Source: Candidatus Staskawiczbacteria bacterium (GTDB lineage: Bacteria > Patescibacteriota > Minisyncoccia > Minisyncoccales > Staskawiczbacteraceae). From it: a stretch of DNA of 64,000 bases. Location: the NCBI GenBank assembly GCA_026395175.1, contig JAPLZF010000015.1, forward strand, positions 21,066 through 85,065, given 5' to 3'. Under the pieces are notes generated by a model. It was not told the origin of the DNA, made no database searches, and worked only from the letters and a program-made list of their open reading frames with translations. This document shows, one piece after another, positions 22,735-58,799 of this stretch; within the stretch, counting starts at the first letter, position 1, and each line of letters starts with the position of its first letter. Made by a program: the position numbers and the translations under genes.

Positions 22735-23687
22735 TTGCTATTACTATTTAATTTTCGCAAATAATCGTAGGCGGCAAGAGCGGTTTTACATCCTTCGCCG
22801 GCTGCCGTAACAATTTGTTTGTATGGTCCGGAATTATTGTCGCCGGCGGCAAAAAGTCCCGGGGTTTTTGTGGCAAATGTTTCATTTTCAACAACAATTT
22901 CATCTCTTTTTGTAAAATCAACCAATCCTTTCGCCAAAGCTGTGGCTGGCTGGTGTCCAATTTCTATAAAAACTCCTTCTACTTGCAGAGTTTTTACCTG
23001 CCCTGAGCCTGTCGAAGGGTCTTTTGAAACATTGTCTTCGTAAACCAGCGAGTTTACAAAATTTTCTCCCTTAATTTCTTTTACAACAGCATTTGTAATA
23101 ATTTCAATTTTGCCGGATTCTTTGGCGTCTTTTTGATTTATTTCATCTGCTTTTATATCCGGTCCAAATTCTAAAACATAAATTTTTGTAGCGTAATTTG
23201 TCATAAATAAAGCAGCTTCCATCCCAGCGTTTCCTCCGCCAATTACTGCTATTGTTTTATTTCTAAATATTGGACCGTCGCAAGTAACGCAATAACTTAT
23301 TCCTTTGCCTATAAATTCTTTTTCGCCAACAGCTTCCAACGGCCTTGGATCCACTCCTGTTGCAATAATAACAGACTTACTTTCAAGTTTTTCATTATCC
23401 GTAGTTATAATTGTAAAAATGTCGTTGTTTTTTTCTATTTTTTCTGCCTCTGAAAATTTTACTTCAACAGATTCTTGTTTTTCTAAATGTTCAACAAATT
23501 TATCTATAAGCTCCATTCCAGAGATTCTTTCAAAACCCGGATAATTGCAAACTTCTGTGGCTTTTTTTGCCGTTTGCCCGCCAAACTCTTTTGTGATTAA
23601 AAGCGTTTTCATTTTTTGACGGCCGGCATAAATTCCGGCTGTAATTCCAGCCGGTCCGCCTCCAATAATAATCAGGTCGTAAATCAT
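22731..23687 (-). CDS. trxB: Thioredoxin-disulfide reductase
   Basis: 318 aa. Contains IIGGGPAG, the redox-active CVTCDG and VIGGGNAGMEAA (NADPH site). It overlaps the eno start by 4 nt. Confidence 0.9.
   Translation of the reverse strand: MIYDLIIIGGGPAGITAGIYAGRQKMKTLLITKEFGGQTAKKATEVCNYPGFERISGMELIDKFVEHLEKQESVEVKFSEAEKIEKNNDIFTIITTDNEKLESKSVIIATGVDPRPLEAVGEKEFIGKGISYCVTCDGPIFRNKTIAVIGGGNAGMEAALFMTNYATKIYVLEFGPDIKADEINQKDAKESGKIEIITNAVVKEIKGENFVNSLVYEDNVSKDPSTGSGQVKTLQVEGVFIEIGHQPATALAKGLVDFTKRDEIVVENETFATKTPGLFAAGDNNSGPYKQIVTAAGEGCKTALAAYDYLRKLNSNSK
22996..23021. repeat. Short GC-rich repeat, copy in trxB (encodes DPSTGSGQV)
   Basis: Plus strand is ACCTGCCCTGAGCCTGTCGAAGGGTC. The coding sense is CCCTTCGACAGGCTCAGGGCAGGTAAAA. 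Confidence 0.7.
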
Positions 23688-24562
23688 TTTATGGTTTTTA
23701 AGTATTCTTTTAATTCTTTGTTAAATCTTGGGTCTTTCAACGCCAGAAAGAAAAAAGATTTTAACCATTTCAATTTATCTCCGCATTCCAGCCACTCGCC
23801 TTTCAATTCGCATCCGTAAATTGTTTTTCCTTCCAGAAGCATTTTGTCAAAAACTTCAGCCAAAATTATTTCTCCTTTTTTAGACGGAGTCGCTTTTTTC
23901 AAATATTTAAAAACTTCCGGAGTTAAAAAAAATTTTAAAACAAATAACAAATTATACGGAATTTACGAAGGCTCGGGCTTTTCTATAATTTTTTTGATTT
24001 TGTATAAATTATTGGCAATTTTTTCAACAGCAACAACTCCATAAGCCGGCACTTTTTCCCTTGGCAATTGTTTTAAAGCCAGCACCGGAGCATTGCAAGT
24101 CTTGAAAACATTTATAAGCTGGGCAATTGCAGGCTCTTCTGCATAAACAACGTCATCTCCAAAAGAAACAGCAACGGGCTCTCCATTTGTCTGTTTTGCT
24201 GCCTGCAAAAGGGCATGACCGTCGCCAAGCGGTTCTTTCTGCACGGCATAAGAAAAAGTAATTCCGGCAAACATTTCTTCAAGGTCTTTCAATTCTTTCA
24301 GGGCATTGTCTCTTTTTCTTTTTACCAGTAATTTTTCAAGCTCGGGAGATTTCTTAAAATAATTCTGAATATTTTTCTGCCCGGGACTGACAACAAAAAT
24401 TACTTCCTTAATTCCGGACTTTTTAACTTCTTCCAAAATATATTGGATGACCGGCTTGTCAACCAAAGGAAAAAAATCCTTAGGCACGGCCCGCGACAGC
24501 GGCAAAAACCTGGTGCCTAATCCCGCAACCGGAATAATAACTTTTTTTATATCTTCTGACAT
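23684..24562 (-). pseudogene. galU: UTP-glucose-1-phosphate uridylyltransferase (GalU-type) interrupted by one in-frame TAA
   Basis: The N-terminal part (23963-24562) carries PVAGLGTRFLP and VEKP-type IIEKPEPS. TAA at 23963-23965 is in the same frame as the C-terminal part (23684-23950; LTPEVF...GEI.LAEV...ECGDKLKW). Read-through gives EKPEPS*IPYNLLFVLKFFLTPEVF. Confidence 0.7.
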
Positions 24563-24574
24563 AATTTTTAATTG

Positions 24575-26305
24575 TTAACTTTTAAATTTAACTTTTCTTA
24601 AAAACGCTGGTATTTCCCATTCTTTTTCCTGCGCCAATCTCTTTTTTTCTAAAAGTTCTTCGGCTTCTTTGATTTCCAAACCGCTTCTCCTTATTGTTTT
24701 TTTAATTGAAGATGATGCTTCAACAACATCTAGTCTTCTTTGTTCTAAAACCGGAATACCCGGAGAGCGCTCGGGAACAGGAACCTCAAACACAGGAATA
24801 ATGGAAACCTGCTTTTCCTTCTTTTTTACCGACTTTTTATTTTTTACCCGTTCGACTCCGCTCAGGGCAGGTTTTTTCGCTTTTGGTTTTGCTTCTTTTT
24901 TGATTATTTTTTCAACAGGCTCTGGCTTAACTAATTTTGCGGGTTCTATTTTCTCCTCAATTATTTTTTCTTCGGCTTGCCCGCCGGTCATCAAAATTGT
25001 GGTTTTTATTTTGTTTTTCAGCTTTGAATCTTTTGAAATTCCAAAAATAATTTTTGCTTTAGGATTTTGGTTAGATATGTGGCTGCTGATTTTTTCCACT
25101 TCAAACATTGAAAGATTTTCAGAACCCACAATATTGAACAAAATCTTTTCCGCTTTCAAATTGCTGTTCTGCAAAAGAGGATTTTTAAAAATATTTTCGC
25201 AGGTTTTTTCCACTCTGTTTTTGCCTTGCTGTTCAATGGTGTTTAAAAATGCCGAATTTCCCCTGCCTTTTAAAATTGTCCGCAAATCGGCAAAATCAAT
25301 ATTTATAATTCCCGGATTGTAAATTAGGTCTATTAAGCTTTCCAAAGATTCAATCAGGCTTTTATTGACGGTTGAAAAAGCATTTGTAATTGGCGTTGAT
25401 TCGTCAATAATTTTAAAAATTTTCTCATTGGGAATCACCAGAGAAACATTTAACGATTGGCGTAAAGATTTTAAGGCATTCAAAGCTATGCGCTGTTTGT
25501 TTTTGCCTTCAAATTTAAATGGCATTGTAAATATGCCAAAAGTAATTCCGCCAAAATCTTTTGCGGCTTCCGCAAAAACCTGCGTGGCTCCAGAGCCCAA
25601 TCCTCCTCCCAAAGAAGCCACAAAAATTATTATGTCTTGGTTTTCAAAAAATGCGCCAATTTTTTCTTTGGCCGACTCGGCCGCTTGTTTTGCCAGCTCA
25701 ACATTAACTCCGGTTCCCAAGCCGTGAGTCATTTCCTCGCCAAACCAGAAATATTTTATTCCGGATTTCTTTTTTAATGCCCGAATGTCGGTGTCGGCAA
25801 TAACAAAAGTTGCCTTTTCCAAGGACCTGCCAATTTCAGAAACAATTGAGCCACCTCCCCCGCCAATTCCAATAACTTTAATTTTTGCCTTAAACAAAGA
25901 CTCTGCCGGAAACTCTGTTATTTGAGGTTTTGGAGAGGCTTTTCTTGCCCTGTTAAATAATTTCGGCTTTGCCGAAATTCCCGCTTTGCGGGATTTAACA
26001 GGGTGAACTTTTTTAATAATTAACTTTTTTACAAGTTTTTTTGTTTTTACAGGCTTACGCTTTACTATTTTTTTTATTATCTTTTTAGGTTTTACAGCCT
26101 TTTTTATTGCCTTTCTTGCCCTGTTAAATAATTTCGGCTTTGCCGAAATTCCCGCTTTGCGGGATTTAACAGGGTGAACTTTTTTGACAATTTTTTTCTT
26201 ATTTAAAATCTTCCTGCGTTTTGCGGGCTTCTTTTTTTTTATTATATTTTTTTTCCCTCGCCTCGCCGAAGCTTTACGCGAAGGCGGGTTCTTTTTCTTT
26301 GGCAT
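24575..26305 (-). CDS. ftsZ: Cell division GTPase FtsZ with a long lysine-rich repeat-containing N-terminal extension
   Basis: Tubulin/FtsZ motifs are VIGIGGGGGSIV and ASLGGGLGSGATQV. The preferred start is MPKKKNPP (26305), which has a TATAAT 6 nt upstream. The ORF track extends to 26344. Confidence 0.9.
   Translation of the reverse strand: MPKKKNPPSRKASARRGKKNIIKKKKPAKRRKILNKKKIVKKVHPVKSRKAGISAKPKLFNRARKAIKKAVKPKKIIKKIVKRKPVKTKKLVKKLIIKKVHPVKSRKAGISAKPKLFNRARKASPKPQITEFPAESLFKAKIKVIGIGGGGGSIVSEIGRSLEKATFVIADTDIRALKKKSGIKYFWFGEEMTHGLGTGVNVELAKQAAESAKEKIGAFFENQDIIIFVASLGGGLGSGATQVFAEAAKDFGGITFGIFTMPFKFEGKNKQRIALNALKSLRQSLNVSLVIPNEKIFKIIDESTPITNAFSTVNKSLIESLESLIDLIYNPGIINIDFADLRTILKGRGNSAFLNTIEQQGKNRVEKTCENIFKNPLLQNSNLKAEKILFNIVGSENLSMFEVEKISSHISNQNPKAKIIFGISKDSKLKNKIKTTILMTGGQAEEKIIEEKIEPAKLVKPEPVEKIIKKEAKPKAKKPALSGVERVKNKKSVKKKEKQVSIIPVFEVPVPERSPGIPVLEQRRLDVVEASSSIKKTIRRSGLEIKEAEELLEKKRLAQEKEWEIPAFLRKVKFKS
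25944..26008. repeat. Nested-palindrome repeat, copy 2 (inside ftsZ coding sequence)
   Basis: CTTGCCCTGTTAAAT-AATTTCGGCTTTGCCGAAATT-CCCGCTTTGCGGG-ATTTAACAGGGTGAAC. It is translated in frame as VHPVKSRKAGISAKPKLFNRARKA. Confidence 0.85.
26115..26179. repeat. Nested-palindrome repeat, copy 3 (inside ftsZ, 171 nt from copy 2)
   Basis: The 65 nt are identical to copy 2. A 171-nt (57-codon) tandem duplication keeps the frame. Confidence 0.85.
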
Positions 26306-26472
26306 TATATTATTATATGTTAACTGCTTATAAAATAAAATCAAGAGTTGACAAAAATTATAAAAAAAAGAGGCCAGCTAATGCGTGATGCACCAACTGA
26401 CCTTTATGTTTCTTATCGGCTCAGAGAGCCATTTAGACGAAGGGTTGCATTGCCTTCATCAATTTGTCCCAG

Positions 26473-31952: not shown

Positions 31953-32453
31953 TTAATGAATCTGGGGCCGCTGAGCCTCAAATACTTTTTTATCGTAATT
32001 CCACCCCACCGTTATATCATCTGAAACACCTTTCCCATTATCAGTAAGAAGATACAAAACAAAATTATCACTTTTGATACTGACAAATTTATATCCGTAA
32101 AACTTATCTTTCACTATTTCCTGATCTTTACCTTTGGTGTTGAAAAAACCATCGCTATTTATTTTGTAAATGACGATTTTTTTTCCATCTACTTCCTTCG
32201 TTATATACAACGAAGTAAATACATCTTTATTAAGATAAGTTACATACGCATCTCCAAGAATTGAACCGTCTGGAGTTTTAAGCGTGCTTACTAGAGTTAT
32301 ATCGCTTTTATTAAAAGTTATTTTTTTATGCGTATCGATGCGTTGGACCAAATAAAGCAAAGCAGTAATAACAATTAAAGCTACTACTAATATGGAAATA
32401 AATTTAATTATTGTTTTAGTCATATAAGTTATCATTGAGTGATTTTTTGCCAA
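31953..32453 (-). CDS. Membrane-anchored immunity-protein candidate for the NlpC/P60 toxin
   Basis: 166 aa with an N-terminal TM. It lies immediately downstream of, and overlapping, the orphan Rhs-CT gene. No motif recognised. Confidence 0.4.
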   Translation of the reverse strand: MAKNHSMITYMTKTIIKFISILVVALIVITALLYLVQRIDTHKKITFNKSDITLVSTLKTPDGSILGDAYVTYLNKDVFTSLYITKEVDGKKIVIYKINSDGFFNTKGKDQEIVKDKFYGYKFVSIKSDNFVLYLLTDNGKGVSDDITVGWNYDKKVFEAQRPQIH

Positions 32454-33445
32454 TCTAATTGTCTGTGATAGATAGATCCTCCTTGTTTGTAAGTGTAATC
32501 ATCTTGGTAATTGGTTGGAGTTAATAGCACTCCTGTATCGGGATTTAATGGATTAACCATTGAACCATTGCCAACATTAGTTGTTACGTGATCTATTCTA
32601 CCATCTGAGGTGTAATCATAAAATGTCACCGTGCCCCTACTCCTACTATCTGATGAAACTGAATAATTTCTATATAAGTCATCCGCACCGCGATCTCCAA
32701 AGTTCGGATTTGCACTTTGTCTAATACCATAGATAACTGCCCCAGAACAATCAACAGAATCAGGTCCGTTGGCTCCCCACACATAAGGTTTTCCAACAAG
32801 TTTCTCTTCAATTGCAGCATATTTGCCATTATAATATTGTGTCGTTTGGATTTTTGGCGACTGATGAGATGAATAAGAAGGTTGTGCAATTGATATACTA
32901 CTTGGACTCTTATTTTGCAAATGGTTCGGAGATATACTGCCATCGCCTCCGCCAATTACAGTTGACAGTAATGATTTCCACGCAGATACAAGAGAACTAA
33001 TAATAGAAACCAACGATGATGCTCGACCACTCGGATCACTCCGATTGATAGGGTTGTCATTCGCGTATGAGTAACTATTCAAAGCTTGCGGGTTTGCCAA
33101 AAGCGTTTGCTGGTCTTGTCCAGTAAGTTGTTTTATTTGATTTTCATCGCCAATCGCGAGAGCGACCGGGTCTTCGCTTGTGAATCTTGCCAGCGCGGAG
33201 TTGTAGTATCTTGCGTTGAGGTAATTTAATCCTGTGTCGGCGTCAAACTCCTGTCCAATGTATTTCCTCTGCTCTGAAAAGGCAGAGGACCCTGAGCCCG
33301 TCGAAGGGTGCGTATCAATTCTAATTGCTCCAAATGGGAAGTAATCTAAAGTTTCAGCAATAGTGCCGGCGGAGTCGGTCATCACGCTGGATGAGTTAAG
33401 ATTTTCTGCGTGGTTATAATATATTTTAGCATTAATTCCTATCAT
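32432..33445 (-). CDS. Orphan Rhs C-terminal cassette: Rhs core end plus NlpC/P60 peptidoglycan hydrolase toxin domain
   Basis: AKIYYN..LNSSSVMTDSAG...DYFPFG...QRKYIGQEFDADTGLNYLNARYYNSALARF.SEDP parallels the main Rhs. The C-terminus GKPYVWGANGPDSVDCSGAVIYG has the NlpC/P60 catalytic Cys. The start is set to MIGIN (33445), 6 nt after TGGTATAAT. Confidence 0.75.
   Translation of the reverse strand: MIGINAKIYYNHAENLNSSSVMTDSAGTIAETLDYFPFGAIRIDTHPSTGSGSSAFSEQRKYIGQEFDADTGLNYLNARYYNSALARFTSEDPVALAIGDENQIKQLTGQDQQTLLANPQALNSYSYANDNPINRSDPSGRASSLVSIISSLVSAWKSLLSTVIGGGDGSISPNHLQNKSPSSISIAQPSYSSHQSPKIQTTQYYNGKYAAIEEKLVGKPYVWGANGPDSVDCSGAVIYGIRQSANPNFGDRGADDLYRNYSVSSDSRSRGTVTFYDYTSDGRIDHVTTNVGNGSMVNPLNPDTGVLLTPTNYQDDYTYKQGGSIYHRQLDWQKITQ
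33193..33266. repeat. 74-bp segment identical to 34721-34794 (Rhs core-end recombination substrate)
   Basis: AATCTTGCCAGCGCGGAGTTGTAGTATCTTGCGTTGAGGTAATTTAATCCTGTGTCGGCGTCAAACTCCTGTCC occurs in both copies, and the flanks are homologous but diverged. Confidence 0.85.
33288..33310. repeat. Short GC-rich repeat, copy in the orphan Rhs cassette (encodes HPSTGSGS)
   Basis: GGACCCTGAGCCCGTCGAAGGGTG. It is absent from the paralogous position of the main Rhs, which reads DNKTSSFTEQRKY. Confidence 0.7.
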
Positions 33446-33489
33446 AAAACAATTATACCACACAGCGACTAATTATCACAAAAAGGCTC

Positions 33490-33951
33490 CTACCCCCTTT
33501 TATGACTTTTTTCATTTCTATTTTGCTTGTATATTTGATTTAATTGGTAATCATCCAGATTTTTTATTTCTTCAAGGATTTTTTCTATCCTTTCTTTGTA
33601 TTGTTCGGGAAATGCAACAATAAAAGTTTGTATTAAATCTTTATCTTTAGTGTACGGATTTGAATGAGAGATATCATTAAGTATTTTCAACAATATAAGC
33701 ACGTCTTTATCTCCAAGGTTAGGGACGTCTTCATGATAAATAACAAAATGTTTATTTGATAACCAGCTAAAATCCGATAACAATTCATCGAAATAATCCC
33801 AATTATCACAAAAATTTCCAGGAAATTTAAAAACATCTGCATAGCTCTGTAATAGCTCTTTTTTAGAAGCTATGCCGGTGGGAATAATACCCACATAGGC
33901 ATCTGGATTTTTATTGAAATCTTCAAGTTTTCCGAATTTAATGTTTACCAT
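33490..33951 (-). CDS. Barstar-like RNase inhibitor (immunity protein)
   Basis: 153 aa directly downstream of the Rhs toxin. FCDNWDYFDELLSD resembles the barstar NLDALWDCLTG helix region. Confidence 0.65.
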   Translation of the reverse strand: MVNIKFGKLEDFNKNPDAYVGIIPTGIASKKELLQSYADVFKFPGNFCDNWDYFDELLSDFSWLSNKHFVIYHEDVPNLGDKDVLILLKILNDISHSNPYTKDKDLIQTFIVAFPEQYKERIEKILEEIKNLDDYQLNQIYKQNRNEKSHKRG

Positions 33952-33955
33952 ATAT

Positions 33956-36900
33956 TTAGCGTTTAATTGTAGTTATACTTTGGTAATGGTCTGATGTATA
34001 ATACATATCGCCGTTTTTAGTGCCCACTAACATTCTTTCTGCTGTATTGGATGGTGCTCCAGAATTATTTACCGGATATTCTAAATATTGATTCCCGTTA
34101 TTGTAATTTAATTGTGAATGACCTTCGGCATTTCGATAAAATTCAGTTAATCCTGTGTTTTTATTAATTTTAGGTCCTATCTTTCCAGATTCTATCGCGT
34201 CAACAGTCGGCTGAAGATTAACCTTGCCTTGATATATACTCTTTCCAAACTGTTTTACGCTAGTGTCTATTTCTAAACTATTCTCTGCCGACAATGTCTT
34301 ACCTAACCCGCCTAATAATTTAGCTGTTGTTCCAGCTCCAATCCATCCACCCAACATTTCTCCAGAATTGTAATCAAACTGGTCTTTACTAATCTTCCCA
34401 GAAACACAATCTTGATAGTTTTTATATGATCCATAAACTGTCGCCGCACCTGCCATAGAAACCACGCCCACTCCAATACCTGTAGCAATTGCAGCAGGAA
34501 TCTCTATTGGTAAGGCTGTGATAGCACCAGCAACTAATACAGTTACAGCACCTGCATACACAACACCCCTTGCAGATCCTTGCACAAAAGTTTTCCAGCT
34601 TTGTCCTGTCGGATCGCTTAATGTTATCGGGTTGTTGCGTGAATAGCTGTAATAATTGAGTTGTTGCGGGTCGGCGAGAAACTTTTCGGGGTTGTCTCGT
34701 GATGCTGAATCTTCGGAGATAAATCTTGCCAGCGCGGAGTTGTAGTATCTTGCGTTGAGGTAATTTAATCCTGTGTCGGCGTCAAACTCCTGTCCGATGT
34801 ATTTTCTCTGTTCTGTGAAAGAACTTGTTTTGTTGTCTATGCGGATTGCGCCGAATGGGAAATAATCCATTGTTTCTGCCAGCGCACCAGCCGAGTCAGT
34901 CATCACGCTGGAAGAATTGAGCGAGTCGGTTGCGTTGTAGTAAATCTTGGCAACTGCTCCTGTTCCATTTATTGTAGCAATATTTTGGTTATTTGCAAAG
35001 ATGTGCTTTACAATAGATGTTGGGTTTTGGGTGGTTGGTGTTAGATATGAAGCGTTATAGTTTTGTGTTGGGTAATATGTCGAGCTCGCAAGCGAAGATC
35101 CTAAACCTGGCGAAGGATTAGTTGTAATTTTAATTCTCTGGCCGTTTGCGTCGTAGGCGTAAGTTGTGGTTGTGTTGGCAGAAATGTTTGTGGCAGAAAC
35201 AAGCCGGTTGTTGTAATCATAAGTGTACGAATTTATTCCGTCGCTTGTGATATTTCCATTTTGGTCGTACTGAAAATTATTAGTTCCCGGGTCGCCGATG
35301 GTAAAAGTTTTTGGCGAATTAGAAAGCAAAAAGTTTGCTCCGCCGGCGGAATCTATGCCGTAAATGTAAATCGTGTGCGGTTTGCCGTCTTGGTATTTTG
35401 CCGGAATTGAATAAATAAAGCGGTGGTTTCCGGTGTAAGCCGGAAAAACTTTTGTAACATCTGGGCTTGCGGTGTTGGCGGAAACTCGAGAAAGAAATGT
35501 TCCTGTTCCTATTGCGCCGTCTATGTAAATATCAACAGAAATTGATGTGTTTGGAACATCTGGGTCGGCTGTCCAGCCATAAGCTATCCAGCCGGCATAA
35601 GTGGTGCTCATAACGCCGTCAATGTATCCAACAGGAACGCGGTTTGAAGCCAAAATTATTTTGGCAATCGGCTCGGCAGATTTGCCGACCACAACTGTTT
35701 GCGAATTAGTTTTGGTTGCAGAAGTTTTTGTGACAGCGTCTGGATTTGCGTAAGAAGAACCTGCGTTATTTAAATTTCCTTTGTAATCGTAAGTTGTTGT
35801 TGTGTCGTTTAATTTTTGAGACAGCATATTTCCCAAAGCGTCGTAAGTAAAACTCTGAGTGTATGCTTGCTGGCCCGAGGCAACATTTGTTGCAGTTGAC
35901 GAAAGCAAGCGATACAAATCGTCATAAGTGTAAGCAACTGTCTTTTTAGAATCAGTGGCTGAATTGTCAACAAACTGAATAATATTGCCTACGTTGTCAT
36001 AGATATAAGCAAGATTTTGCAGTTGCGTTCCTGTGGCGGTGTTTGTAATTTTGTTTGCCAGCCGGTAAAGCTTTGCAGAATCGTAAGTGTTGGTGGAAAT
36101 TGCGCCATTGGCAAAACTTTCTGTAGTAATTTGCTCAAGCGGCGAATAATCAAAGTTTGAGATTACATTAGCAAACGCTGTGTCAGTTGATTCTTTTTTT
36201 TGTATCTGGTCAAGAAGACCGGCTGGATTGTAAATGTTTTTAATTTGCGAATTGTCAGGATTTATAATTAAAATTTGGTTTCCTTGGCGGTCAAAATTGT
36301 ACTGGGTTATGAAAGTTTTTGTGTCAATTATTTTTGTGTCTTTGGTTATGTTTCCCAAAGATGAATATTCATATTGCTCGGTTTGCTGAGCAGAAACGCT
36401 TTTGCACAAAAGTCCTTTTCCGTTTGGACAAGCGTCGTAAATAAAAGTTGCCTCCACGCCGGCTTTGCCGGCATAATCTTCGCTGGTTTTTCTGTTTAGA
36501 GCGTCAAAATTATAATTAATTGTCTGATTTTTCGCGTCAGTCAAACTGATTAAATTTCCAACATTGTCATAAGTGTAATTCCAAACACCAAAAACAGAAT
36601 CCGTAGGATTGTGCAAATCTTCTGCGATTAATTTTCTGTCCAAACCGTCGTAAGAAAAATTTCTGACATTTCCCAAAGCATCTGTGATGTTGATTAAGTC
36701 AGAAAGGCCGTTATACGAATAATAAGTGGAATAAATATTTGAAGCATTGTGTTCGCCAACTTGAATTAAATTCCCATAAGCGTCTTCATAAAAGTCTTTT
36801 GTTTTTCCGTTGGCATCGGTAACGGAAGTTTTCCAATTGTTGTAAGCTGTGATTGTCGCGCCAACAGAATTTATTGATGACACGGCGCGGTTTAATGCAT

Positions 36901-39900
36901 CATATGCGTAGCTTGTGTAAAGCGTAAAATCTTGGGTTGGCAAAGTCCTGCCAAAGCTGTTTGAAAAATATGGCAAAGATTCTTTCTGCAATTGTCCAAG
37001 ATTATTGTAAATATAATCTTTTGTCTCAAAATTATTATTCTCCGCAGATTTTTTTGTTTGGATAATTCTGCCTAATCCATCGTAATAATTATAACTATTA
37101 ACAGCCGTAGAAGAATCTAAATAATCAGTTTGCTGAACGCTCAAAGCACCAGAAGTGTCGGTGTAAATATAAAATGTTTTTTGAACCAATGTTGCCGGAT
37201 TTGCTTGGTCGGGCTGTTCTGTTTTTAAAATTCTTCCGAAGCCGTCGTAAGTGTTTTTAAAAACATTTCCGTTGGCATCTGTGGTTTGCGCAATTTTTCC
37301 GTTGGCGTAATTGTAAATATATTGCGTTGTCTGGCTTAAAGCATTGGTAATTATTGCCGGATAAAGATTATAGCTGTCGTAAGAAAAATTAGTTGCGTTT
37401 CCATTGGCATCTTTGCTTTGAGAAACAAGCCCATAATTATTGTAAACTTTTTGCGAGCTGGCGTAATTTGAATTATTTATCCAATCCTCTTCTTTTGTCT
37501 GGTTTCCCAAACTGACGCTGCCCAATGGCAGATTGTCGTAATAATATCGGCTTTCTTTGATTTTATTATTATTTTGTCCGCTGACAATTATGCCAGACGG
37601 ATAACCAACAACATTGCCACCGGCAGCGTAACTGATGTTAGTGATATATTTGTCATTGCCAACATCTGTGAAGCTTCCGTCATTATTTGCCAAAACTTGT
37701 CCCCATTCTATTTTTTGAGTTTGGTTGCCGTTGCTATTGTCATAGCTATAACTTTCTGTTTTGTCTTTGTGATTTATTGTTCCGTCATAATCTTCTTTTG
37801 TTGCTTGAATTAATTTTGCAAATCCGGCGCTGCCTGCCAAGTTATAACTATCCCATTTGTTTATATTCACCTGATAAAGTTTGCCGGAATTGTCATATTG
37901 CTCTGTCCTGTAAGCTTTTCCTATTTTAAAATAATTGTCCTGATATTGCCCGCGGGATGAATCGTTTCCTGAGCCGGTATTGTAAAAAGTTTTTGTCACA
38001 TTTTGCGCGCTATCAATTTGGTCTATTTCCGCAAAACCGGCAAGATTCCTGTCGAAAGGCCCTTTGTAATAATATGTCCCGCCAAAATACTGGTAATTTT
38101 CCGAAGAAACAATATTATTTACAGGATCTGTGGCATTAATTTTAGAAACAGTTTGAACCGACAAAGGCAATTTTGGATTGGGCAAATTGCCCAAACTATT
38201 GTTGTAAAGAGTTGACGGGGCATAAGAAATATTTATTGTTTCTCCGGTGTTTAACGTAATTGAATTCAACAAGTCATTGCCGGCTGGACTGAGAACCAAG
38301 TTGCTTGTTTGCTGAAAATATATTTCATTAGGGTTGTCGCCGGAAAAATTTCCGAGCGCAAATAATTTGCCGGCGTATGCGCTGCCTCCAACAGAAAAAT
38401 TATAAGGCAAGCTGACATCAAAAGGCTCAGCCCAGCCTTTGCCTGTGTTTAGAAATACTCTTTGAGCTGTAACCGTTTGGCCTGGCAGCGGCTGATATGG
38501 AATGCTGTCAACAACTTGCGTGTTGCTTGTGGCTTGAACCAAATCCACCAAGCCGTCGCCGTTGTAATCAATTACCCTTACTCCGAGTTCATGATTGCCA
38601 CCATAACCGGCGCCTTGGATATAATCACGAAATGAAAATAATGTTGGCGGAGCATAGTTGTCGCTTAAATAAAAATTTCCCAAACCGTCGCCCAGCCAAG
38701 TTTTTTGGACAGTTTCGTCATATGGATAATTATTTACTTCCTGATACTGATATTGCCCAATTTCATGATAACTGGCAATTATATCCAAAATTCCATCGCC
38801 ATTTACATCTGTGGAAATTATTCCGGCTACCGAATTGCCGTCTGCGTTTGGAAAATAAATTTTGTTGGATCCGGTTGAATTATAAGTGTATTCCGGCGGA
38901 CTATAACTTTTTTTCACAAAACTACTGCCGGTGTTTGAATAGTAAGCAGAATCTACGCTGGTGCCGGCAAAAAAATCCGGCAAGCCGTCGCCATTTATAT
39001 CAAAAAAATTAGCGTTGGGAAAAGATCCGTTAGTGCAAATTGAACCAATGCCGGGAATTTTAAACTGCCACGAAAAATCTTGGTTCCAGCCCGAACCTGT
39101 ATTTATAAATATTGCCGGTCCTTGGCAAGGAATAATTAAATCCGGCAAGCCGTCGCCGTTTATATCTGTAAAAAAATGAGTTGTTTGTAGAAAAGATGGA
39201 GAAGCAGAAACAAATATTGCCGGCGGCTGGTAAGATGGAGATTCTGTCCATCCGTTTTTTCCATTATTCAAGTAAGCTTTCTGCAGGACAAAACCGGACG
39301 ATGAATAAGAAATTAAAACATCGGTTAATCCGTCGCCGTTTAAATCCGCAAATTCGGCGTAGTCGGAAAATTGCTTAATGTCTGAAGGCAAGTCATAAGT
39401 TGTTTTGCCCGCGTATAAATCATTGGCATAATTAAAACTTGTTTTTGGCTTTGCAATTATATTCCCGCCGGCGGTTTTTCCTGATTCTGTTATGCTTTGA
39501 AGAATTGAACGGCTGCCGTTGCTTCCTGTCTCATAAGCTAAATCATATTTATTAACCCAATTTCCGCTTGCAGAAGCTGTTATTTGGCTTATGCGATAAT
39601 TAGTTGTTGCCAAAAATCCAGCGCCGTAGCTTGCGGTGTTGTCGGCTCTTGCCTCGGTTGCAAAACTAACTTCAAAAATTCCGCCGGTGTTTCCGTTGCC
39701 GGTGTATCTTATTGCCAAAGGATAAATTTGACCCGCGTCTTTAAAATAAGAATAAGAAATATAATTATTGTTGGCGTCTCTCACTTCCTGCAGCATCCAT
39801 TTGTAAACATTGCCAGGATTTTGCGGGTCGTTTTGCTGAGACGCGCTGTTATAACCAAACTTGTATTGCGTGCCGTCTTTGGCAACCACCAGCCATTGAT

Positions 39901-40510: not shown

Positions 40511-40517
40511 ATGTTTG

Positions 40518-40546
40518 ATAATGGCACAATCGTCTTGCAATGTCAA
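40518..40546 (-). promoter_or_regulatory. Promoter of the large Rhs gene (TTGACA-N17-CATTAT), apparently leaderless
   Basis: The minus strand reads TTGACATTGCAAGACGATTGTGCCATTATCAAACATATG. The -10 ends 7 nt before the ATG at 40510. Confidence 0.5.
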
Positions 40547-40564
40547 ATATTTTAAAAAACCTCT

Positions 40565-40589
40565 CAACTCGGGTTAATTGGTTAGAAAT
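40565..40589. repeat. 25-nt conserved box, copy 2 (upstream of the Rhs promoter)
   Basis: CAACTCGGGTTAATTGGTTAGAAAT is identical to 31186-31210. Confidence 0.8.
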
Positions 40590-41162: not shown

Positions 41163-42509
41163 TTATTTACTAATTGATTTTTTTGGTTGCAGAGCGCCTA
41201 AGCCGGGCCAATTAAAAGTCGCCGGAATGGATTGCTGGCTCGAGTAGCGGGTCCAAGAATCAACGTGAATTGGGCTATTTTTTGAACGGTCAGAAACAGT
41301 GTAACCACCATCTTTGTTTTGAGTAAAATTTTGAGCGAACAATGCCTTATCAGGTCTTGCATTCTGTTCTAATGTATAAATTGTCCCGCCATTATTATAC
41401 GCATTAGCTACCACTTCTACAATTGTTCCCACATGACCATAGCTCTGGTCATCGCTTGTCCATGTCATAAGGTCATTTTCTTGAGGCAACACAGAACTGC
41501 CATTTTTATAAACCGCCATCGAACCGGAATTTTTATTATTCTCCATCACTCTATTGACTTCCTTTTGATTGCCATAATTAATTGCACCCTCTTTTCCTAT
41601 TCCAGAAATGTTTATATCATATTGAGCCTTATAAAATTTTTGAACAAAAGTAGTACATTGCTGAAAATTATTTTCATCAAGAGGTCCGTATTCTCCACGG
41701 CTATTTACGTTCACACCTCTATAACTGGCTATTGCTTCCCCATAACTATAACCATAAATCCCTCCTAATGGTAAATACGGCTGTATTTCTGAAACTTTCT
41801 TGCCACTTGGATCGCTCAAAGTTATTGGATTATTCTGAGCGTAGCTATAAAGATTCAGCTGTTGCGGGTCGGCAAGGAACTTTTCAGGGTTATCTCTTGA
41901 TACTGGGTCTTCTGACAAAAACTTTGCTATACTGCTATTGTAATACCTTGCATTGAGATAGTCCAACCCTGTGGATGAATCGAAGTCCTGACCGAGGAAT
42001 TTCTTTTGTTGCGGGTTTTGACCTGTTGCTGTGTTGTCTAATCTGATTTGCCCGAAAGGAAAATAGTCAATTGTTTCTGCGGGTTTGTTGTCTATCGATA
42101 GAACATTTGTAATACTGCCTTGGTGGTCTGTTAAGACCGGCTGGAGAACAGCTGTTTGACCGGTTCCGCTGATTGTGGCAACCAATGTTCCGTTGGCATT
42201 AACATACTTTGTGATTTTTTCTGGAGATTTGTTGCCTTTGGAGTCGGTTGTATATGAAACGCTGTAATCTTTTGAGGGGTAATAGGTGGTTTCCGAACTG
42301 CCATCTGAATTTTGGACAACCATTTTTATTCGCTGACCTTGCGGGTCGTATGAGTAAGTTGTGACTGCGCCGGTGGATGTGTTTGTGGCAGAGGTAAGGC
42401 GATTGTTATAGTCATAGGTGTAAGTGGTGGCGAGCGCGGGCGCTATTGGCTGCAATGCAAAAATGAGAGCAAACGCCGCCACAATCATTTTGCGCAAAAC
42501 TTTACCCAT
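41163..42509 (-). CDS. Short secreted Rhs-repeat protein with a C-terminal CHAP amidase/peptidase toxin domain
   Basis: 448 aa with a signal peptide. YTYDYNNRLTSATN..YSYDPQGQRIK are YD repeats. The core end is DYFPFG...RYYNSSIAKFLSEDP. The CHAP-like Cys is in QQCTTFVQKFY and the His in YGHVGTIVEV. Confidence 0.75.
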   Translation of the reverse strand: MGKVLRKMIVAAFALIFALQPIAPALATTYTYDYNNRLTSATNTSTGAVTTYSYDPQGQRIKMVVQNSDGSSETTYYPSKDYSVSYTTDSKGNKSPEKITKYVNANGTLVATISGTGQTAVLQPVLTDHQGSITNVLSIDNKPAETIDYFPFGQIRLDNTATGQNPQQKKFLGQDFDSSTGLDYLNARYYNSSIAKFLSEDPVSRDNPEKFLADPQQLNLYSYAQNNPITLSDPSGKKVSEIQPYLPLGGIYGYSYGEAIASYRGVNVNSRGEYGPLDENNFQQCTTFVQKFYKAQYDINISGIGKEGAINYGNQKEVNRVMENNKNSGSMAVYKNGSSVLPQENDLMTWTSDDQSYGHVGTIVEVVANAYNNGGTIYTLEQNARPDKALFAQNFTQNKDGGYTVSDRSKNSPIHVDSWTRYSSQQSIPATFNWPGLGALQPKKSISK

Positions 42510-47638: not shown

Positions 47639-49180
47639 ATGCTAACAAAAAAACAAACCCAAACATTAGACTATATCAAAAAATACATAGAAGAAAAAAA
47701 CTATTCCCCCACGCTTGAAGAGATAAGAGACAATTTTGGTCTCTCCTCGGTTTCCACCATACACGAACACGTGCAAACTCTTAAAGAAAAGGGATATTTA
47801 GAAAAAATAGAAAATCAACCAAGGTCAATCGAATTATCCCAAAACAAAAAATTTGAATTGTTAGAAATCCCTCTGCTTGGGATTATCGCTGCCGGACAAC
47901 CCATAGAGGCGATTGAAATTCCAGAAGAAACAATAACTATACCAAAAAATGACGTTGGAAAATTTGGAAAATTTTATGCCTTGAAAGTTCGAGGAGACAG
48001 CATGATAGACGAAGGAATTTTCGACGGCGATATAGTTGTGCTCAGAGAACAAAAAATTGCTGAAGACGGCCAAACCGTTGTTGCAATTATTGACGACAAC
48101 CAAGCAACGCTTAAAAAAATATATCGGGAGAAAAATAAATTTCGTTTGCAACCGGCAAATCAAAATCTTTTACCATTTTTCAGAACTAATGTGGAAATTC
48201 GCGGTGTAGTTGTAAAAGTTATACGAAACCTTGAAATCAACAGAGAAAATACACTAGAAAACAGGAAAAAAGTATTTTTAGAAAGAATAAGAAGCAAAAA
48301 TCCAGACAGTTCTAATAAATACAAAAGAGTCGTTGAATCGCCGATAAGATACGCTGGCGGAAAAAGTTTAGGAGTTGGATTTGTTGCAGAACTTTTACCA
48401 GATAATATAAATAGGATAATATCGCCATTTTTTGGCGGAGGATCAATTGAAATCGCTTTCAACAAATATCTTGGACTAGAGGTTGTCGGATATGATATTT
48501 TTGATATTTTGGTCAATTATTGGAATATCCAAATAAACAAGCCAAAAGCATTATTCAAAAGATTGTCAGAATTAGAGCCAAACGAAAAAACCTACAAAGA
48601 TATAAAAGAAAGATTGAAAAAACATTGGAAGAAAGAAAAAAAGATGGCTCCGATGGACTTAGCTGTTCATTATTATTTTAATCATAATCTATCATATGGC
48701 CCTGGATTTTTAGGCTGGCCATCTAGTATTTACCTTAAAAAAGAACGATATGAAACAACCATTGAGAAAGTCCGCGATTTTTCTGTTAACAATTTTGAAG
48801 TTAAATGCGCCAGCTTTGAAGAAGCTTTTGAAAAATACCCAAATGATTTTTTCTATTGCGACCCGCCATATTTGCTGGGCCATGACTCAAAAATGTTTAG
48901 AGGAATTTATCCAATGAGAAATATTCCTGTCCATCATAATGGATTTCCTCACGAAAAATTATTAGATTTACTAAAAAAACACAAAGGTGGCTTTGTGCTT
49001 TCTTACAACAATTGCCAAACTATAAGAGATTGGTATAAAGATTACAAACATTATTTCCCAACGTGGCAATATACAATGGGACAAGGAGAAACTAGAATAG
49101 GTAAAAACAGGATAGAAAACGGAGACAACCACATAAAACATTCCCACGAAATAATTATCTTCTGCCCTCCAGCAATTTAA
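47639..49180 (+). CDS. Fusion protein: full-length LexA (wHTH plus S24 self-cleaving domain) joined to a Dam-family (D12 class) N6-adenine DNA methyltransferase
   Basis: One uninterrupted 513-aa ORF. The LexA part has LTKKQ..LDYIKKYI..SPTLEEI, the cleavage site IIAAGQP, the catalytic Ser in VRGDSM, the Lys in QATLKKI, and ends ..RGVVVKVIRNL. A basic linker of about 35 aa follows. The MTase part has SPIRYAGGK, PFFGGGS (motif I) and FYCDPPY (motif IV). Confidence 0.85.
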   Translation: MLTKKQTQTLDYIKKYIEEKNYSPTLEEIRDNFGLSSVSTIHEHVQTLKEKGYLEKIENQPRSIELSQNKKFELLEIPLLGIIAAGQPIEAIEIPEETITIPKNDVGKFGKFYALKVRGDSMIDEGIFDGDIVVLREQKIAEDGQTVVAIIDDNQATLKKIYREKNKFRLQPANQNLLPFFRTNVEIRGVVVKVIRNLEINRENTLENRKKVFLERIRSKNPDSSNKYKRVVESPIRYAGGKSLGVGFVAELLPDNINRIISPFFGGGSIEIAFNKYLGLEVVGYDIFDILVNYWNIQINKPKALFKRLSELEPNEKTYKDIKERLKKHWKKEKKMAPMDLAVHYYFNHNLSYGPGFLGWPSSIYLKKERYETTIEKVRDFSVNNFEVKCASFEEAFEKYPNDFFYCDPPYLLGHDSKMFRGIYPMRNIPVHHNGFPHEKLLDLLKKHKGGFVLSYNNCQTIRDWYKDYKHYFPTWQYTMGQGETRIGKNRIENGDNHIKHSHEIIIFCPPAI

Positions 49181-54639: not shown

Positions 54640-54651
54640 ATTTTTTTCATA

Positions 54652-55200: not shown

Positions 55201-55228
55201 TTTATTATTTGCAGCAGTTCGATAATTC

Positions 55229-55606: not shown

Positions 55607-55646
55607 ATTTTTTATTTATTATAAGCCAAAATTTATTTTATGTCTA

Positions 55647-55711
55647 TTCACCCTGTCAAATAATTTTGCCAAAGTCAAAATTAGCGCAAAGCGCTATTTG
55701 ACAGGGTAAAC
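55647..55711. repeat. Nested-palindrome repeat, copy 4 (overlaps the metK stop)
   Basis: TTCACCCTGTCAAAT-AATTTTGCCAAAGTCAAAATT-AGCGCAAAGCGCT-ATTTGACAGGGTAAAC. The right end supplies the metK C-terminus ..VYPVK and its stop. Confidence 0.8.
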
Positions 55712-56752
55712 TTTTTCCCATGGAAGATTTTCTTTTCCAAAATGACCGTATGCCGAGGTCTGCAAATATATGGGTTTTCGCAGGTCTAATCTTTCAATTA
55801 TTGCTTGAGGCTTGAAATCAAAATTCTTTTTTACAATTTCAGACAAATCTTCTCCTTTTTCATTTTGCGCGGAAACCATTAAAGGTTCTGCCCTGCCAAT
55901 TGCATAAGCCACAGAAACCAGACATTGTTTGGCAAATCCGTTTGCCACCAAATTTTTTGCCACAAACCTTGCCATATAAGCTGCAGACCTATCAACTTTG
56001 CTTGGGTCTTTTCCGGAAAATGCGCCACCACCGTGAGGAATCAGCCCGCAATAGGTATCAACCATAATTTTTCTGCCGGTTAACCCTGCATCTGCTTCAA
56101 AACCGTCGGCGCCAATTACAAACCTGCCGGTGGGGTTTACTAAAATTTCTATATCAGAAATATCTCCAATAATCGGTTTTATCAGTTTTTCCGTCAGAGT
56201 ATTTTTTATTTCTTCGTTGCTCACAGAATCGGCATGCTGGGTGCTAATTAAAACAGTTTTTATTTTGTCCTCAAAAACAGTAATTTGCGTTTTGCCGTCC
56301 GGTTTTATCCACTTAACCTCCCCGCTTTTTCTTAAATTTTCCAAACCTTTTGCCAACGCATGGACTTTTACAATTGAAACCGGTAAAAATTCCGGAGTTT
56401 CGTCGGTGGCGTATCCATACATAATTCCCTGGTCGCCTGCTCCGCCCGTATCAACACCCATGGCAATATCCGTTGACTGCTTGATAATTCCAATTGTTGT
56501 CACAAAATCCTGTTCAAACCCAATATCTTTATAAACTTTTTTTACAATTCCCTCTGCATTAAATTCTGCTTTTGTTGTCACTTCTCCGCCAATAATCAGC
56601 ATCCCATGATTTCCAAATGTTTCAATGCCGGCTCTTGTATTTGGGTCTTGCCTCAAGCACTCGTCTAATATGGCGTCTGAAAATTGGTCGCACATTTTAT
56701 CCGGATGTCCGGATGTTACGCTTTCTACTGTGTACGTTTTTGGTGTAAACAT
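55694..56752 (-). CDS. metK: S-adenosylmethionine synthetase
   Basis: 352 aa. Contains SGHPDKMCDQ, GAGDQG, DTYCG..HGGGAFSGKDPSKVDRSAAY. It is somewhat short compared with the ~385-aa typical MetK. Confidence 0.9.
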   Translation of the reverse strand: MFTPKTYTVESVTSGHPDKMCDQFSDAILDECLRQDPNTRAGIETFGNHGMLIIGGEVTTKAEFNAEGIVKKVYKDIGFEQDFVTTIGIIKQSTDIAMGVDTGGAGDQGIMYGYATDETPEFLPVSIVKVHALAKGLENLRKSGEVKWIKPDGKTQITVFEDKIKTVLISTQHADSVSNEEIKNTLTEKLIKPIIGDISDIEILVNPTGRFVIGADGFEADAGLTGRKIMVDTYCGLIPHGGGAFSGKDPSKVDRSAAYMARFVAKNLVANGFAKQCLVSVAYAIGRAEPLMVSAQNEKGEDLSEIVKKNFDFKPQAIIERLDLRKPIYLQTSAYGHFGKENLPWEKVYPVK

Positions 56753-56776
56753 TTTTTTTATTTTTAATAATACTTG

Positions 56777-56848
56777 TGGGCGCGGAAGGAATCGGACCTT
56801 CGACCTCTGTCTTATCAGGACAGCGTTCTACCACTGAACTACGCGCCC
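56777..56848 (-). tRNA. tRNA-Ile (anticodon GAU)
   Basis: The minus strand reads GGGCGCG-TA-GTTC-AGTGGTA-GAAC-G-CTGTC-CTGATAA-GACAG-AGGTC-GAAGG-TCCGATT-CCTTC-CGCGCCC-A. This is a canonical cloverleaf with anticodon loop CU-GAU-AA. CCA is not encoded. Confidence 0.9.
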
Positions 56849-56894
56849 ATATTATTTAAGATTTTACCAAAAAAATCGACACATTGCAAATGCA

Positions 56895-57333: not shown

Positions 57334-57339
57334 GGTTTG

Positions 57340-57368
57340 ATGATAGCAAAGTTAACAGATTATGTCAA
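57340..57368 (-). promoter_or_regulatory. Promoter TTGACA-N17-TATCAT directly after the gatA stop
   Basis: The minus strand reads CTATTGACATAATCTGTTAACTTTGCTATCATCAAACC. Confidence 0.5.
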
Positions 57369-57371
57369 TAG

Positions 57372-58799
57372 TTACGACTCCATCTGCGAGGCTATGCTCA
57401 ATATCTTGTTTTCCTGAAAATGATTTCCGATAATCTGCAAACCAACCGGTAAGCCACCGACTTTTCCGGCTGGCAAAGACAATGCCGGCAAACCTGCCAA
57501 GTTTACAGAAATTGTATAAATATCCATTAAATAGTTTGCCAAAGGATCATCTGTTTTCTCTCCAATTTTAATTGCCGGCACCGGTGAAACCGGGCAAAAT
57601 ATTAAATCTACCTTTTCAAAGGCTTTTGCAAAATCCTGTTTTATCAATTGCCTGACCTCCTGAGCTTTTTTATAATATGCGTCATAATATCCGGACGACA
57701 AAGCATAAGTTCCAATAAGAATTCTTCTTTTGACTTCAGGACCTAATCCTTTCCCTCTGCTTTTTAAATAAACATCTAATAAGTTACCATCTTGTTCTGA
57801 CAATCCATATCTTATTCCATCGAACCTGGCCAAGTTAGCTGAAGCTTCGCAGGGAACTATAATATAATAACAAGCCAAAGCAAATTCTGCATTGGGCAAA
57901 CTTATTTCTTTAATTTCAGCCCCGGCTTCTTTTGCTTTTTTAATTGCATCTTTTACTATTTTTTCAACTTCCGGGTCCAATCCTTTTACCTGTCCTGAGC
58001 CGTGTCGAAGGGCAAAATATTCTTTTGGAACTCCAATTTTTAAACCTTTTAAATTTATGTCAGATTCCTCGAATTTATAATCAACAGAAGTTGCATCTTT
58101 TGAATCTTTTCCACAAATTGCTTCAAAAATAATTTTGCAATCCTCAACATTTTTTGCCATCGGTCCAATTTGGTCTAAAGATGATGCATGAGCAATTAGT
58201 CCATACCTTGAAACCGCTCCATAGGTTGGTTTTAAGCCCACAATACCGCAATTAGAAGATGGCATCCTAATTGAGCCTCCTGTATCAGATCCTAAGGCAT
58301 AGCAGGCCTCATTTGCCGCCACAGCAGCTCCAGGGCCCGAAGAACTGCCTCCGGCAACTCTTGTCTTGTCGTGCGGATTTTTTGTTGCGCCAAATGCAGA
58401 ATTTTCTCCGCTTCCTCCCATTGTAAATTCATCTGTATTTCCTTTTCCTAAAATCACAGCTCCCGCTTCCTTTAATTTTTTTACAACAGTTGCATCATAC
58501 GGGGCTACATAATTTTCTAAAATTTTTGAGGCTGCTGTACATTTTTGCCCTTCAACCATTATTGCATCTTTTATTGCGCAAGGAATTCCGCAAAGAATTG
58601 AAAATTCTCCTGTTTTTATTTTTTCATCAGCTTTTCTTGCTTCTTCTAACGCTAAATCCTCTGTAATTGACAAATAAGCATTCAAATCGCTTTTCTTAAT
58701 TTTTTCCAAATAAGCCTTTGTCAAATCAACAGAAGTAAAATCTTTATTTTTTAATCCCTCGTGCGCCTGTTTAATTGTAAGTTCGGTTAAATCCTGCAT
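57372..58799 (-). CDS. gatA: Glutamyl-tRNA(Gln)/aspartyl-tRNA(Asn) amidotransferase subunit A
   Basis: 475 aa. The amidase signature is GGSSSGPGAAVA..GSDTGGSIR. It overlaps the gatC stop by 1 nt. Confidence 0.9.
   Translation of the reverse strand: MQDLTELTIKQAHEGLKNKDFTSVDLTKAYLEKIKKSDLNAYLSITEDLALEEARKADEKIKTGEFSILCGIPCAIKDAIMVEGQKCTAASKILENYVAPYDATVVKKLKEAGAVILGKGNTDEFTMGGSGENSAFGATKNPHDKTRVAGGSSSGPGAAVAANEACYALGSDTGGSIRMPSSNCGIVGLKPTYGAVSRYGLIAHASSLDQIGPMAKNVEDCKIIFEAICGKDSKDATSVDYKFEESDINLKGLKIGVPKEYFALRHGSGQVKGLDPEVEKIVKDAIKKAKEAGAEIKEISLPNAEFALACYYIIVPCEASANLARFDGIRYGLSEQDGNLLDVYLKSRGKGLGPEVKRRILIGTYALSSGYYDAYYKKAQEVRQLIKQDFAKAFEKVDLIFCPVSPVPAIKIGEKTDDPLANYLMDIYTISVNLAGLPALSLPAGKVGGLPVGLQIIGNHFQENKILSIASQMES
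57988..58013. repeat. Short GC-rich repeat, copy in gatA (encodes ALRHGSGQV)
   Basis: Plus strand is ACCTGTCCTGAGCCGTGTCGAAGGGC. The coding sense is GCCCTTCGACACGGCTCAGGACAGGTAAAA. Confidence 0.7.

Follow-up and report, generated by a model that had tools for sequence, protein, structure and literature searches.

Probable copies of a dispersed GC-rich repeat as short in-frame insertions in trxB, gatA and other genes of a Candidatus Staskawiczbacteria genome

The 64-kb stretch of DNA analysed here (the window) has a GC content of 38% and encodes a TrxB that is 100% identical to an NCBI protein of a Candidatus Staskawiczbacteria (Parcubacteria, Candidate Phyla Radiation, CPR) metagenome-assembled genome. 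Nearly all its genes lie on the - strand, the GC skew is negative across most of its length, and Pfam scans of 40 open reading frames (ORFs) revealed ordinary housekeeping genes together with an Rhs toxin locus, which has a Barstar-like immunity gene, and a restriction-modification island. Within trxB, gatA, and an orphan Rhs C-terminal cassette, the initial annotation had recognised short GC-rich segments as fragments of one dispersed repeat. A search for the pattern CCCTTCGAC-N1-2-GGCTCAGG reproduced exactly these three copies, all on the - strand, i.e., in coding sense, against a chance expectation of 0.00-0.01 matches in dinucleotide-preserving shuffles, and the DNA and peptides quoted for them (DPSTGSGQVK in trxB, ALRHGSGQVK in gatA, and HPSTGSGS in Rhs) are exact. 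A tolerant search added two further copies, antisense in ftsZ and degenerate antisense in enolase, bringing the family to five copies in 64 kb, or about one copy per 13 kb, with about one per 12-15 kb in relatives. The repeat units have 65-72% GC, extend beyond the core to …GCTCAGG(G/A)CAGG, and contain neither GTAG/CTAC nor CGTC/GACG. The net insert sizes are 21 (trxB), 24 (gatA), 18 (Rhs), and 27 (enolase) nucleotides (nt), and the long ORFs are intact at all five copies. The copies, the ORFs carrying them, and the empty sites of the Rhs paralogues are located in the window as follows (aa, amino acids).

22998..23019, - strand: repeat unit in trxB, CCCTTCGACAGGCTCAGGGCAG, net 21 nt (7 aa), read (D)PSTGSGQ(V)
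23002-23019, - strand: trxB core match of the pattern search
22731..23687, - strand: trxB ORF, 318 aa, unit at residues 224-230
57990..58013, - strand: repeat unit in gatA, GCCCTTCGACACGGCTCAGGACAG, exact 24 nt (8 aa) between TATTTT and GTAAAAGG, read ALRHGSGQ
57994-58012, - strand: gatA core match of the pattern search
57372..58799, - strand: gatA ORF, 475 aa, unit at residues 263-270
33291..33308, - strand: repeat unit in the orphan Rhs C-terminal cassette, CCCTTCGACGGGCTCAGG, adding 18 nt (6 aa), read PSTGSG
32432..33463, - strand: orphan Rhs cassette ORF, 343 aa, unit at residues 53-58
34817..34840, - strand: empty site in the main Rhs gene (ORF 33956-40567), reading …IDNKTSSF…
42018..42041, - strand: empty site at the homologous position of the third Rhs-core paralogue (ORF 41163-42509)
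24848..24871, + strand: fourth family copy, CCGTTCGACTCCGCTCAGGGCAGG, antisense inside ftsZ (ORF 24575-26344), read PALSGVER
22258..22284, - strand: 27-nt GC-rich insertion in enolase (ORF 21508-22734), read RTPSDSRGV, a degenerate antisense relative (CCCCTCGACTGTCGCTCGGGG on the + strand)

The coding strand of trxB reads …SKDPSTGSGQVKTL… at the insertion. The segment is absent from all 119 other TrxB homologues listed (77-84% identical), which read NVSKE-------NKTLEVQG where the window TrxB reads NVSKDPSTGSGQVKTLQVEG, and it is also missing from solved TrxB structures of distant phyla. The closest orthologous trxB DNA (contig L241) has the empty site TCCAAAG^AAAATAAGACT. An AlphaFold model of TrxB, with a mean predicted local distance difference test (pLDDT) score of 70.5, places residues 224-230 in a loop (219-229) that connects strands 211-218 and 230-235 and whose pLDDT falls below 50 at residues 223-227; this supports a predicted loop location of the insertion.

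The coding strand of gatA reads …EYFALRHGSGQVKGLD… at its insertion. In a codon alignment with five orthologue DNAs, the window has TAT TTT [GCC CTT CGA CAC GGC TCA GGA CAG] GTA AAA, and four of the five orthologues are uninterrupted at the site (TAT/TAC TTT GT(G/T) (A/G)A(A/G)). The junction, TATTTT[24 nt]GTAAAA, has no target-site duplication. The spacer of this copy is AC instead of A, and the first half of the unit is therefore read in another frame, just as the initial annotation had explained the shifted upstream frame by one extra C. Solved GatA structures show an 8-residue gap opposite the segment, and in a structure model residues 263-270 follow strand 254-258 and precede helix 276-291. 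This model is poor overall (pLDDT 51) and only its local secondary structure was used, together with the alignment to the solved structures; the two agree and lend support to a predicted loop position in GatA as well.

The segments are thus not conserved protein sequence, the trxB segment being found in none of the listed homologues and the gatA site being empty or different in orthologues; the window segments are insertions. The predicted peptides across the inserted segments would read …SKDPSTGSGQVK… and …EYFALRHGSGQVK…. The earlier idea of tolerated 8-10 aa loop insertions in essential enzymes is supported for the predicted loops of trxB and gatA, but the net sizes are 7 and 8 aa (6 aa in Rhs), and Rhs is no essential enzyme.

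In the orphan Rhs cassette, the coding strand at the insertion reads …IDTHPSTGSGSSAF…. The main Rhs paralogue (…IRIDNKTSSFTEQRKY) lacks the 18 nt at the homologous site, as had been reported, and the third paralogue in the window lacks them too. The main Rhs toxin gene is followed by the Barstar-like immunity gene (33490-33951) and then by the orphan cassette with its own C-terminal domain (31953-33463). The ftsZ copy is flanked by TTTTTTAC^…^TTTTT and lies in the translated context …KKPALSGVERVKNK…. A tRNA T-arm was considered for the match at 24848 and rejected, as ARAGORN and Rfam give one tRNA in the window, located elsewhere, and the GCAGG tail identifies a family copy. In enolase, the window reads HVRRTPSDSRGVDK against HAD---------NE in L241, whose enolase has a separate insertion read YPSASSGQV. 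The enolase gene of the window also has, at 22336-22356, a 21-nt near-perfect palindrome, GTGGGACGTCGGACGTCCCAC, in place of a short variable segment (AVGRRTSHR vs. S--GQKPNI in L241). Two intergenic unit copies are present in contig L245. A Logan assembly of run ERR15302190 (contig L243, 2,476 nt) spans window positions 22657-25132 and reproduces the trxB and ftsZ copies. All 8 differences between L243 and the window fall within 37 nt (L243 1168-1204, about window 23929-23965), near the 3' end of the nucleotidyl-transferase gene of L243, the remainder being identical; this cluster may be a strain-level recombination patch.

Among the 120 GatA homologues listed, family units occur at three sites (A, B, and C), at site A in the window only. 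Site A (after KEYF) holds the unit of the window, a different GC-rich 21-mer, GCCATGCCTGCCGGCAGGCAG, in P0147, P0184, and P0200, and another insert in P0209; the 21-mer includes the palindrome GCCTGCCGGCAGGC. At site B (after …K-I), L245 and L248 carry the sense unit GCCCTTCGAC(TT/AC)(C/A)GCTCAGGGCAG, and L246 carries GCCCTGAGCAAAGCCGAAGGGCAG, with an inverted core between G…CAG flanks as in L245 and L248. The inserts at site C, near the C-terminus, read HSTGSGQT and RSTSSGQV, with P0186 among the carriers. The carriers are scattered over a neighbour-joining tree of GatA, on which the two sense site-B carriers are sisters and two inverted-core carriers, 77% identical to each other, lie far apart. 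The filled P0200 and the empty P0212 are 97% identical GatA relatives, and their DNAs (L369 filled, L370 empty; 95.8% identical) differ by a clean 21-nt insertion of GCCATGCCTGCCGGCAGGCAG at the same TATTTT^GTAAAAGG boundary, with neither target duplication nor deletion at the junction; this pair concerns the different 21-mer at the gatA site of the window, not the window's unit. A second GC-rich segment in the L369 gatA (net +27 nt) stands in place of GAAAAA in L370. Together, the filled/empty pair and the scattered carriers show that the insertion of the unit and of other GC-rich micro-elements in Staskawiczbacteria is recurrent and recent, occurring at identical codon boundaries in unrelated lineages.

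In the gatA gene of L247 (about 11340-11375), in codons for LPAGRQVCQDG, the conserved native LPAGK is extended into a near-perfect 18-nt palindrome, CTGCCTGCC|GGCAGGCAA, which looks like a fold-back or template-switch inverted duplication through which a GC-rich palindrome arose de novo. Further GC-rich micro-insertion peptides that recur in CPR proteins are AQGGPA(S/A)GW, PPAGG, MPAGRQ/LPAGRQ, and SAEASA/EASAKE, carried by GatA and TrxB homologues and metagenome loci (P0185, P0234, P0219, P0229, P0021, P0095, L328, L352, and L119), and several such families often occur within one CPR protein. The phenomenon is therefore wider than a single motif.

Scans for the 18-mer pattern in species-representative genomes, viral contigs, and metagenome contigs gave at least 120 loci in each collection, and the flanks are non-random; the chance similarity that the initial annotation had allowed for does not explain the copies. 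The genome matches listed include Chloroflexota, Actinomycetota, Sphingomonadales, Cyanobacteria, Acidobacteriota, Planctomycetota, several CPR groups, and finished isolate chromosomes. In a set of 271 copies among the matches listed, whose hosts are mostly GC-rich, the six bases 3' of the core are GCGAAC in 33 and [GA]CAGGC in 34. An inverted copy lies within 200 nt of 83 of these 271 (55 upstream and 28 downstream; sides were counted separately, so that copies with partners on both were counted twice), and a direct copy within 200 nt of 51. On the evidence of the sequences, the shared flanks mean homology rather than chance, and the inverted partners suggest that in GC-rich hosts the motif usually forms one arm of an inverted-repeat element, …CTGAGCCTGTCGAAGGGC–spacer–GCCCTTCGACAGGCTCAGGGCGAACGG. 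Flanking subtypes are GCGAACGG, GTGAGCGG, GACCG, and GCAGGC, and the consensus of the unit is (GA/G)CCCTTCGAC-N2-3-GCTCAGG(G/A)CAGG. Five of its six frames are open: depending on the frame, the sense strand encodes PFDRLRAG, LRQAQGR, or PSTGSGQ and the antisense strand PALSLSKG or CPEPVEG, its remaining frame having a stop. The opposite strand does read PEPVEG, as had been noticed, and so do ORFs over tandem copies elsewhere. At the gathering score, Rfam gave only a tRNA, both in the window and in 18 loci with full elements. [quoted passage not shown] Repeats in L006, L054, and L083 carry the tail …GGCTCAGGACGAACGG; the string GGCTCAGGACGAACG in this tail presumably resembles the 5' part of the 16S rRNA of many bacteria, immediately following the 27F primer site, which may be coincidence.

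In AT-rich genomes the unit has another form. A metagenome scan with a pattern that required an A/T run some bases downstream and left the junctions free listed 119 matches, 55 of which form a non-redundant subset with local GC below 45%. In these 55 instances the GC island that holds the motif measures 26 nt in the median and most often 23-25 nt, with sharp boundaries, (GA/AA)(C/T)CC(C)TTCGAC … GCTCAGG(G/A)CAGG(C), and an inverted partner accompanies only two, i.e., the unit is mainly solitary. Nearly half of the subset (24/55) lies well inside ORFs of at least 200 residues, 22 in coding sense and 2 antisense; 18 of the 22 sense instances are in the (D/N)PST… frame, with all three sense frames and the antisense orientation occurring among the copies. 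By sequence motif, the host ORFs resemble an ABC ATPase, asparagine synthase, pseudouridine synthase, DnaJ, Mur ligase, YchF-like GTPase, aminoacyl-tRNA synthetase, CCA-adding enzyme, and NUDIX hydrolase, proteins unrelated to one another. The orientation bias could also reflect a replication-strand bias. In type IV pilin-like ORFs of the unrelated contigs L028 and L354, the antisense reading …ALS(Q/K)SKG ends the pilin leader, directly before FT(I/L)VELL. A scan for GC islands was rejected as a detector, since it returned 65 islands vs. about 24 in shuffles, mostly apparently ordinary GC-rich codons.

The targets are A/T-rich, both orientations are seen, and sites are reused. TTAC abuts the junction (3' of TTAC on one strand) at gatA site A for both elements, at trxB, at ftsZ, and at one intergenic copy of L245; it is missing from the Rhs, enolase, and L246 junctions. 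Overall, 4-5 of about 10 Staskawiczbacteria sites have it. As a general target TTAC was rejected, because GTAA stands beside the unit in just 3-4 of the 119 copies in AT-rich context; a lineage-local preference is possible.

We consider it likely that the segments stem from a dispersed GC-rich repeat of about 22-26 nt, whose copies were inserted into pre-existing genes and survive as harmless passengers. The unit would be non-autonomous selfish DNA, REP- or RPE-like, reduced to a single arm, and moved by an enzyme encoded elsewhere. Inserted copies would persist where their length keeps the frame, five of the six unit frames being stop-free. The trxB and gatA copies lie in predicted loops, and the usual frame would encode a flexible peptide rich in Pro, Ser, Thr, and Gly, (D/N)PSTGSGQ. 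Purifying selection would then remove copies that break the frame, are wrongly oriented, or lie outside loops, and the inserted peptide is probably neutral to the host enzymes.

Several observations weigh against this interpretation. The Pfam scans of the 40 ORFs in the 64-kb window gave no Y1_Tnp, RAYT-like, or other transposase (RAYT, REP-associated tyrosine transposase), the sole recombinase being a tyrosine integrase in the restriction-modification island. The four window units fold as single-stranded DNA at only -1.0 to -2.3 kcal/mol (z 0.0 to +0.8 vs. shuffles); the solitary unit thus has no stable fold, and a hairpin-recognising mechanism would be left without a substrate. A two-arm "master" element was found nowhere in about 190 kb of Staskawiczbacteria DNA. 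The near-identity over 24 nt across phyla is unlike the host-specific REP/RAYT systems, and the reused codon boundary could reflect allele transfer by recombination or very strong selection instead of targeted insertion. Finally, the frame bias points to selection on the encoded peptide, because a process at the DNA level cannot sense the reading frame and so cannot account for this bias alone.

A REP-like hairpin within the unit was ruled out by this folding at shuffle level, the terminal complementarity being 4-5 bp only (GCCCT/AGGGC). The single arm may be a collapsed two-arm hairpin, which would fit L246 vs. L245 at one site, but a two-arm copy was found nowhere in the same 190 kb, and partners in only 2/55 AT-rich instances. 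The inverted core of L246 fits either an in-situ inversion between the GCCCT/AGGGC ends or an alternative collapse of a two-arm ancestor.

Both intragenic REPs (GTAG/CGTC superfamilies; Di Nocera et al. 2013) and RPEs have been documented inside genes (PMC3733652, PMC10969869). In-frame RPEs and intragenic REPs are the closest documented phenomena, with the same behaviour of a dispersed repeat tolerated in functional genes. The present unit is set apart from them by being very small, solitary, conserved across phyla, and recurrent at fixed CPR gene sites. With RPEs it shares the in-frame, translated, and apparently tolerated presence of a repeat in unrelated housekeeping genes of a small AT-rich genome (PMC10969869, PMC3733652); trxB, gatA, ftsZ, and enolase all carry it in frame, with intact ORFs and orthologues without the insertions. 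However, the RPE-1 type consists of palindromes of about 100-150 bp, encoding 30-50 residues and confined to one genus, whereas the unit has about 24 nt (6-8 residues), forms no stable hairpin on its own, and occurs in many phyla. REPs are similarly short (20-40 bp) GC-rich units, single or dimeric inside known genes, and the present unit is often inverted-paired in GC-rich hosts, but it has no GTAG/CGTC tag, no significant fold, and no RAYT in the window, and is conserved across phyla.

The element IS608 inserts 3' of TTAC without target duplication. The present unit resembles the IS200/IS605 family in the lack of target-site duplication and in the 4-5 of about 10 junctions lying exactly 3' of TTAC, but differs in having no subterminal hairpins, no TnpA in the window, and a rare TTAC/GTAA flank elsewhere. 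MITEs are also small, non-coding, dispersed, and sometimes in frame inside genes, but they measure 70-300 bp and have terminal inverted repeats and target duplications; the unit, with its mode of 23-25 nt, has neither. The yeast mitochondrial GC clusters, short mobile GC-rich units in a very AT-rich genome that are occasionally tolerated in a coding gene, may be a further parallel; they differ in being organellar, palindromic, and of other sequence. Uptake signal sequences and DNA uptake sequences are species-specific, arise mainly by substitution, and occur about once per kb, whereas the present segments are inserted, occur about once per 13 kb, and are found in many phyla.

A bolder form of the repeat interpretation, which we put forward tentatively and regard as doubtful, is that mobility resides in the sequence-defined unit itself, whose roughly 24 nt are nearly the same in bacteria of many phyla and in viral contigs. 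It would repeatedly enter the same CPR codon boundaries without duplication, hairpin, or known transposase, and its survivors would be biased in sense and frame. If true, such a unit would stand for an unrecognised mechanism of insertion or for a "loop cassette" at the peptide level, and would be the smallest mobile element described.

Repair rather than transposition could also have placed the segments, if breaks or stalled forks in AT-rich tracts were healed with GC-rich repeat DNA from copies in the genome or from uptake from neighbours or hosts. Such patches would account for insertion at A/T runs, for junctions without target duplication, and for the lack of an enzyme nearby in the window. 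Template switching would also produce palindromic variants, the L247 palindrome CTGCCTGCC|GGCAGGCAA resembles fold-back copying, and in L246 an inverted core stands between unchanged G…CAG flanks. Moreover, high-GC bacteria of many phyla carry the unit in abundance, so that environmental DNA would commonly contain it. We think this origin unlikely, because random capture predicts varied ends, whereas the 55 AT-rich contexts show the sharp limits CC(C)TTCGAC … CAGG and a length that is most often 23-25 nt, and one unit recurs at several sites in many lineages.

It is improbable that some function of the unit itself maintains it, with (D/N)PSTGSGQ as a motif for a modifying enzyme or protease, or with the DNA or RNA as an uptake or binding signal. 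The coding-sense bias (22 to 2), the preference for one frame (18/22), the GC-rich composition retained in a genome of 38% GC, and the antisense …LS(Q/K)SKG that pilin genes use directly before the FT(I/L)VELL cleavage-site motif would all suit such a function. However, close relatives lack the unit in every case examined, the host proteins are unrelated, all three sense frames and the antisense occur, and the gatA copy is read in a hybrid frame owing to one extra base. The distribution over many phyla also speaks against a species-specific uptake signal.

That the segments are ancestral and were lost in relatives is highly improbable: although alignment alone does not polarise an indel and several GatA lineages share site A or B, this would need loss in 119 of the 120 listed TrxB lineages and in nearly all GatA with a perfect empty site each time, solved structures from distant phyla also lack the segment, and a segment of 67% GC is unlikely to last in a genome of 38% GC. 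Scarcely credible, finally, is an assembly or sequencing artefact by chimeric joins with an abundant repeat of other community members, even though the window comes from a metagenome-assembled genome and GC-rich organisms that co-occur commonly carry the motif, since all five window copies keep long ORFs, the independent L243 assembly reproduces two of them, and insertions of like kind are found in JGI, ENA, NCBI, and Logan contigs and the motif in isolate genomes.

If the segments are indeed inserted copies of a dispersed repeat, selfish DNA would reside inside essential enzymes even in the most streamlined bacterial genomes, and loops of CPR proteins could arise via repeat insertion, not by gradual change. 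Peptides derived from the repeat (PSTGSGQA, LRQAQGR, FDKLRAG, ALSLSKG, and PEPVEG) should be masked in alignments, phylogenies, and the building of protein families. The filled and empty alleles between strains that are 96-97% identical could serve as a marker for population dynamics.

The window holds further elements besides the GC-rich unit. The stretch 2696-14502, with a tyrosine integrase, a DUF6998 protein, a ResIII helicase, two N6/N4 DNA methylases, and a DUF5681 protein, is a probable integrated island. In the product of the only long gene on the + strand (47639-49180), which lies in a stretch of 31% GC, a LexA DNA-binding domain is fused to an S24 peptidase and a Dam-type N6-adenine methyltransferase. 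There is also a second dispersed repeat, about 65-70 nt long, with an outer stem, TTCACCCTGTTAAAT…ATTTAACAGGGTGAA, around two internal hairpins and a Y-shaped fold; its copies are located as follows.

25941-26010: second repeat, in the ftsZ ORF (24575-26344)
26112-26181: second repeat, in the same ftsZ ORF
55644-55713: second repeat
19385-19456: second repeat
59099-59172: second repeat
L241 5879-5948: second repeat in contig L241

No Rfam match was obtained for this repeat, and its exact pattern had no match in viral contigs. The sequence of the internal hairpins varies between copies while the pairing is kept, and the z-scores of the RNA folds are -7.1, -5.1, -3.0, and -6.6. Two of the copies form part of the coding sequence for FtsZ's Lys-rich N-terminal extension, where their in-frame translation gives VHPVKSRKAGISAKPKLFNRARKA twice, and the others are intergenic or at the 3' end of a gene.

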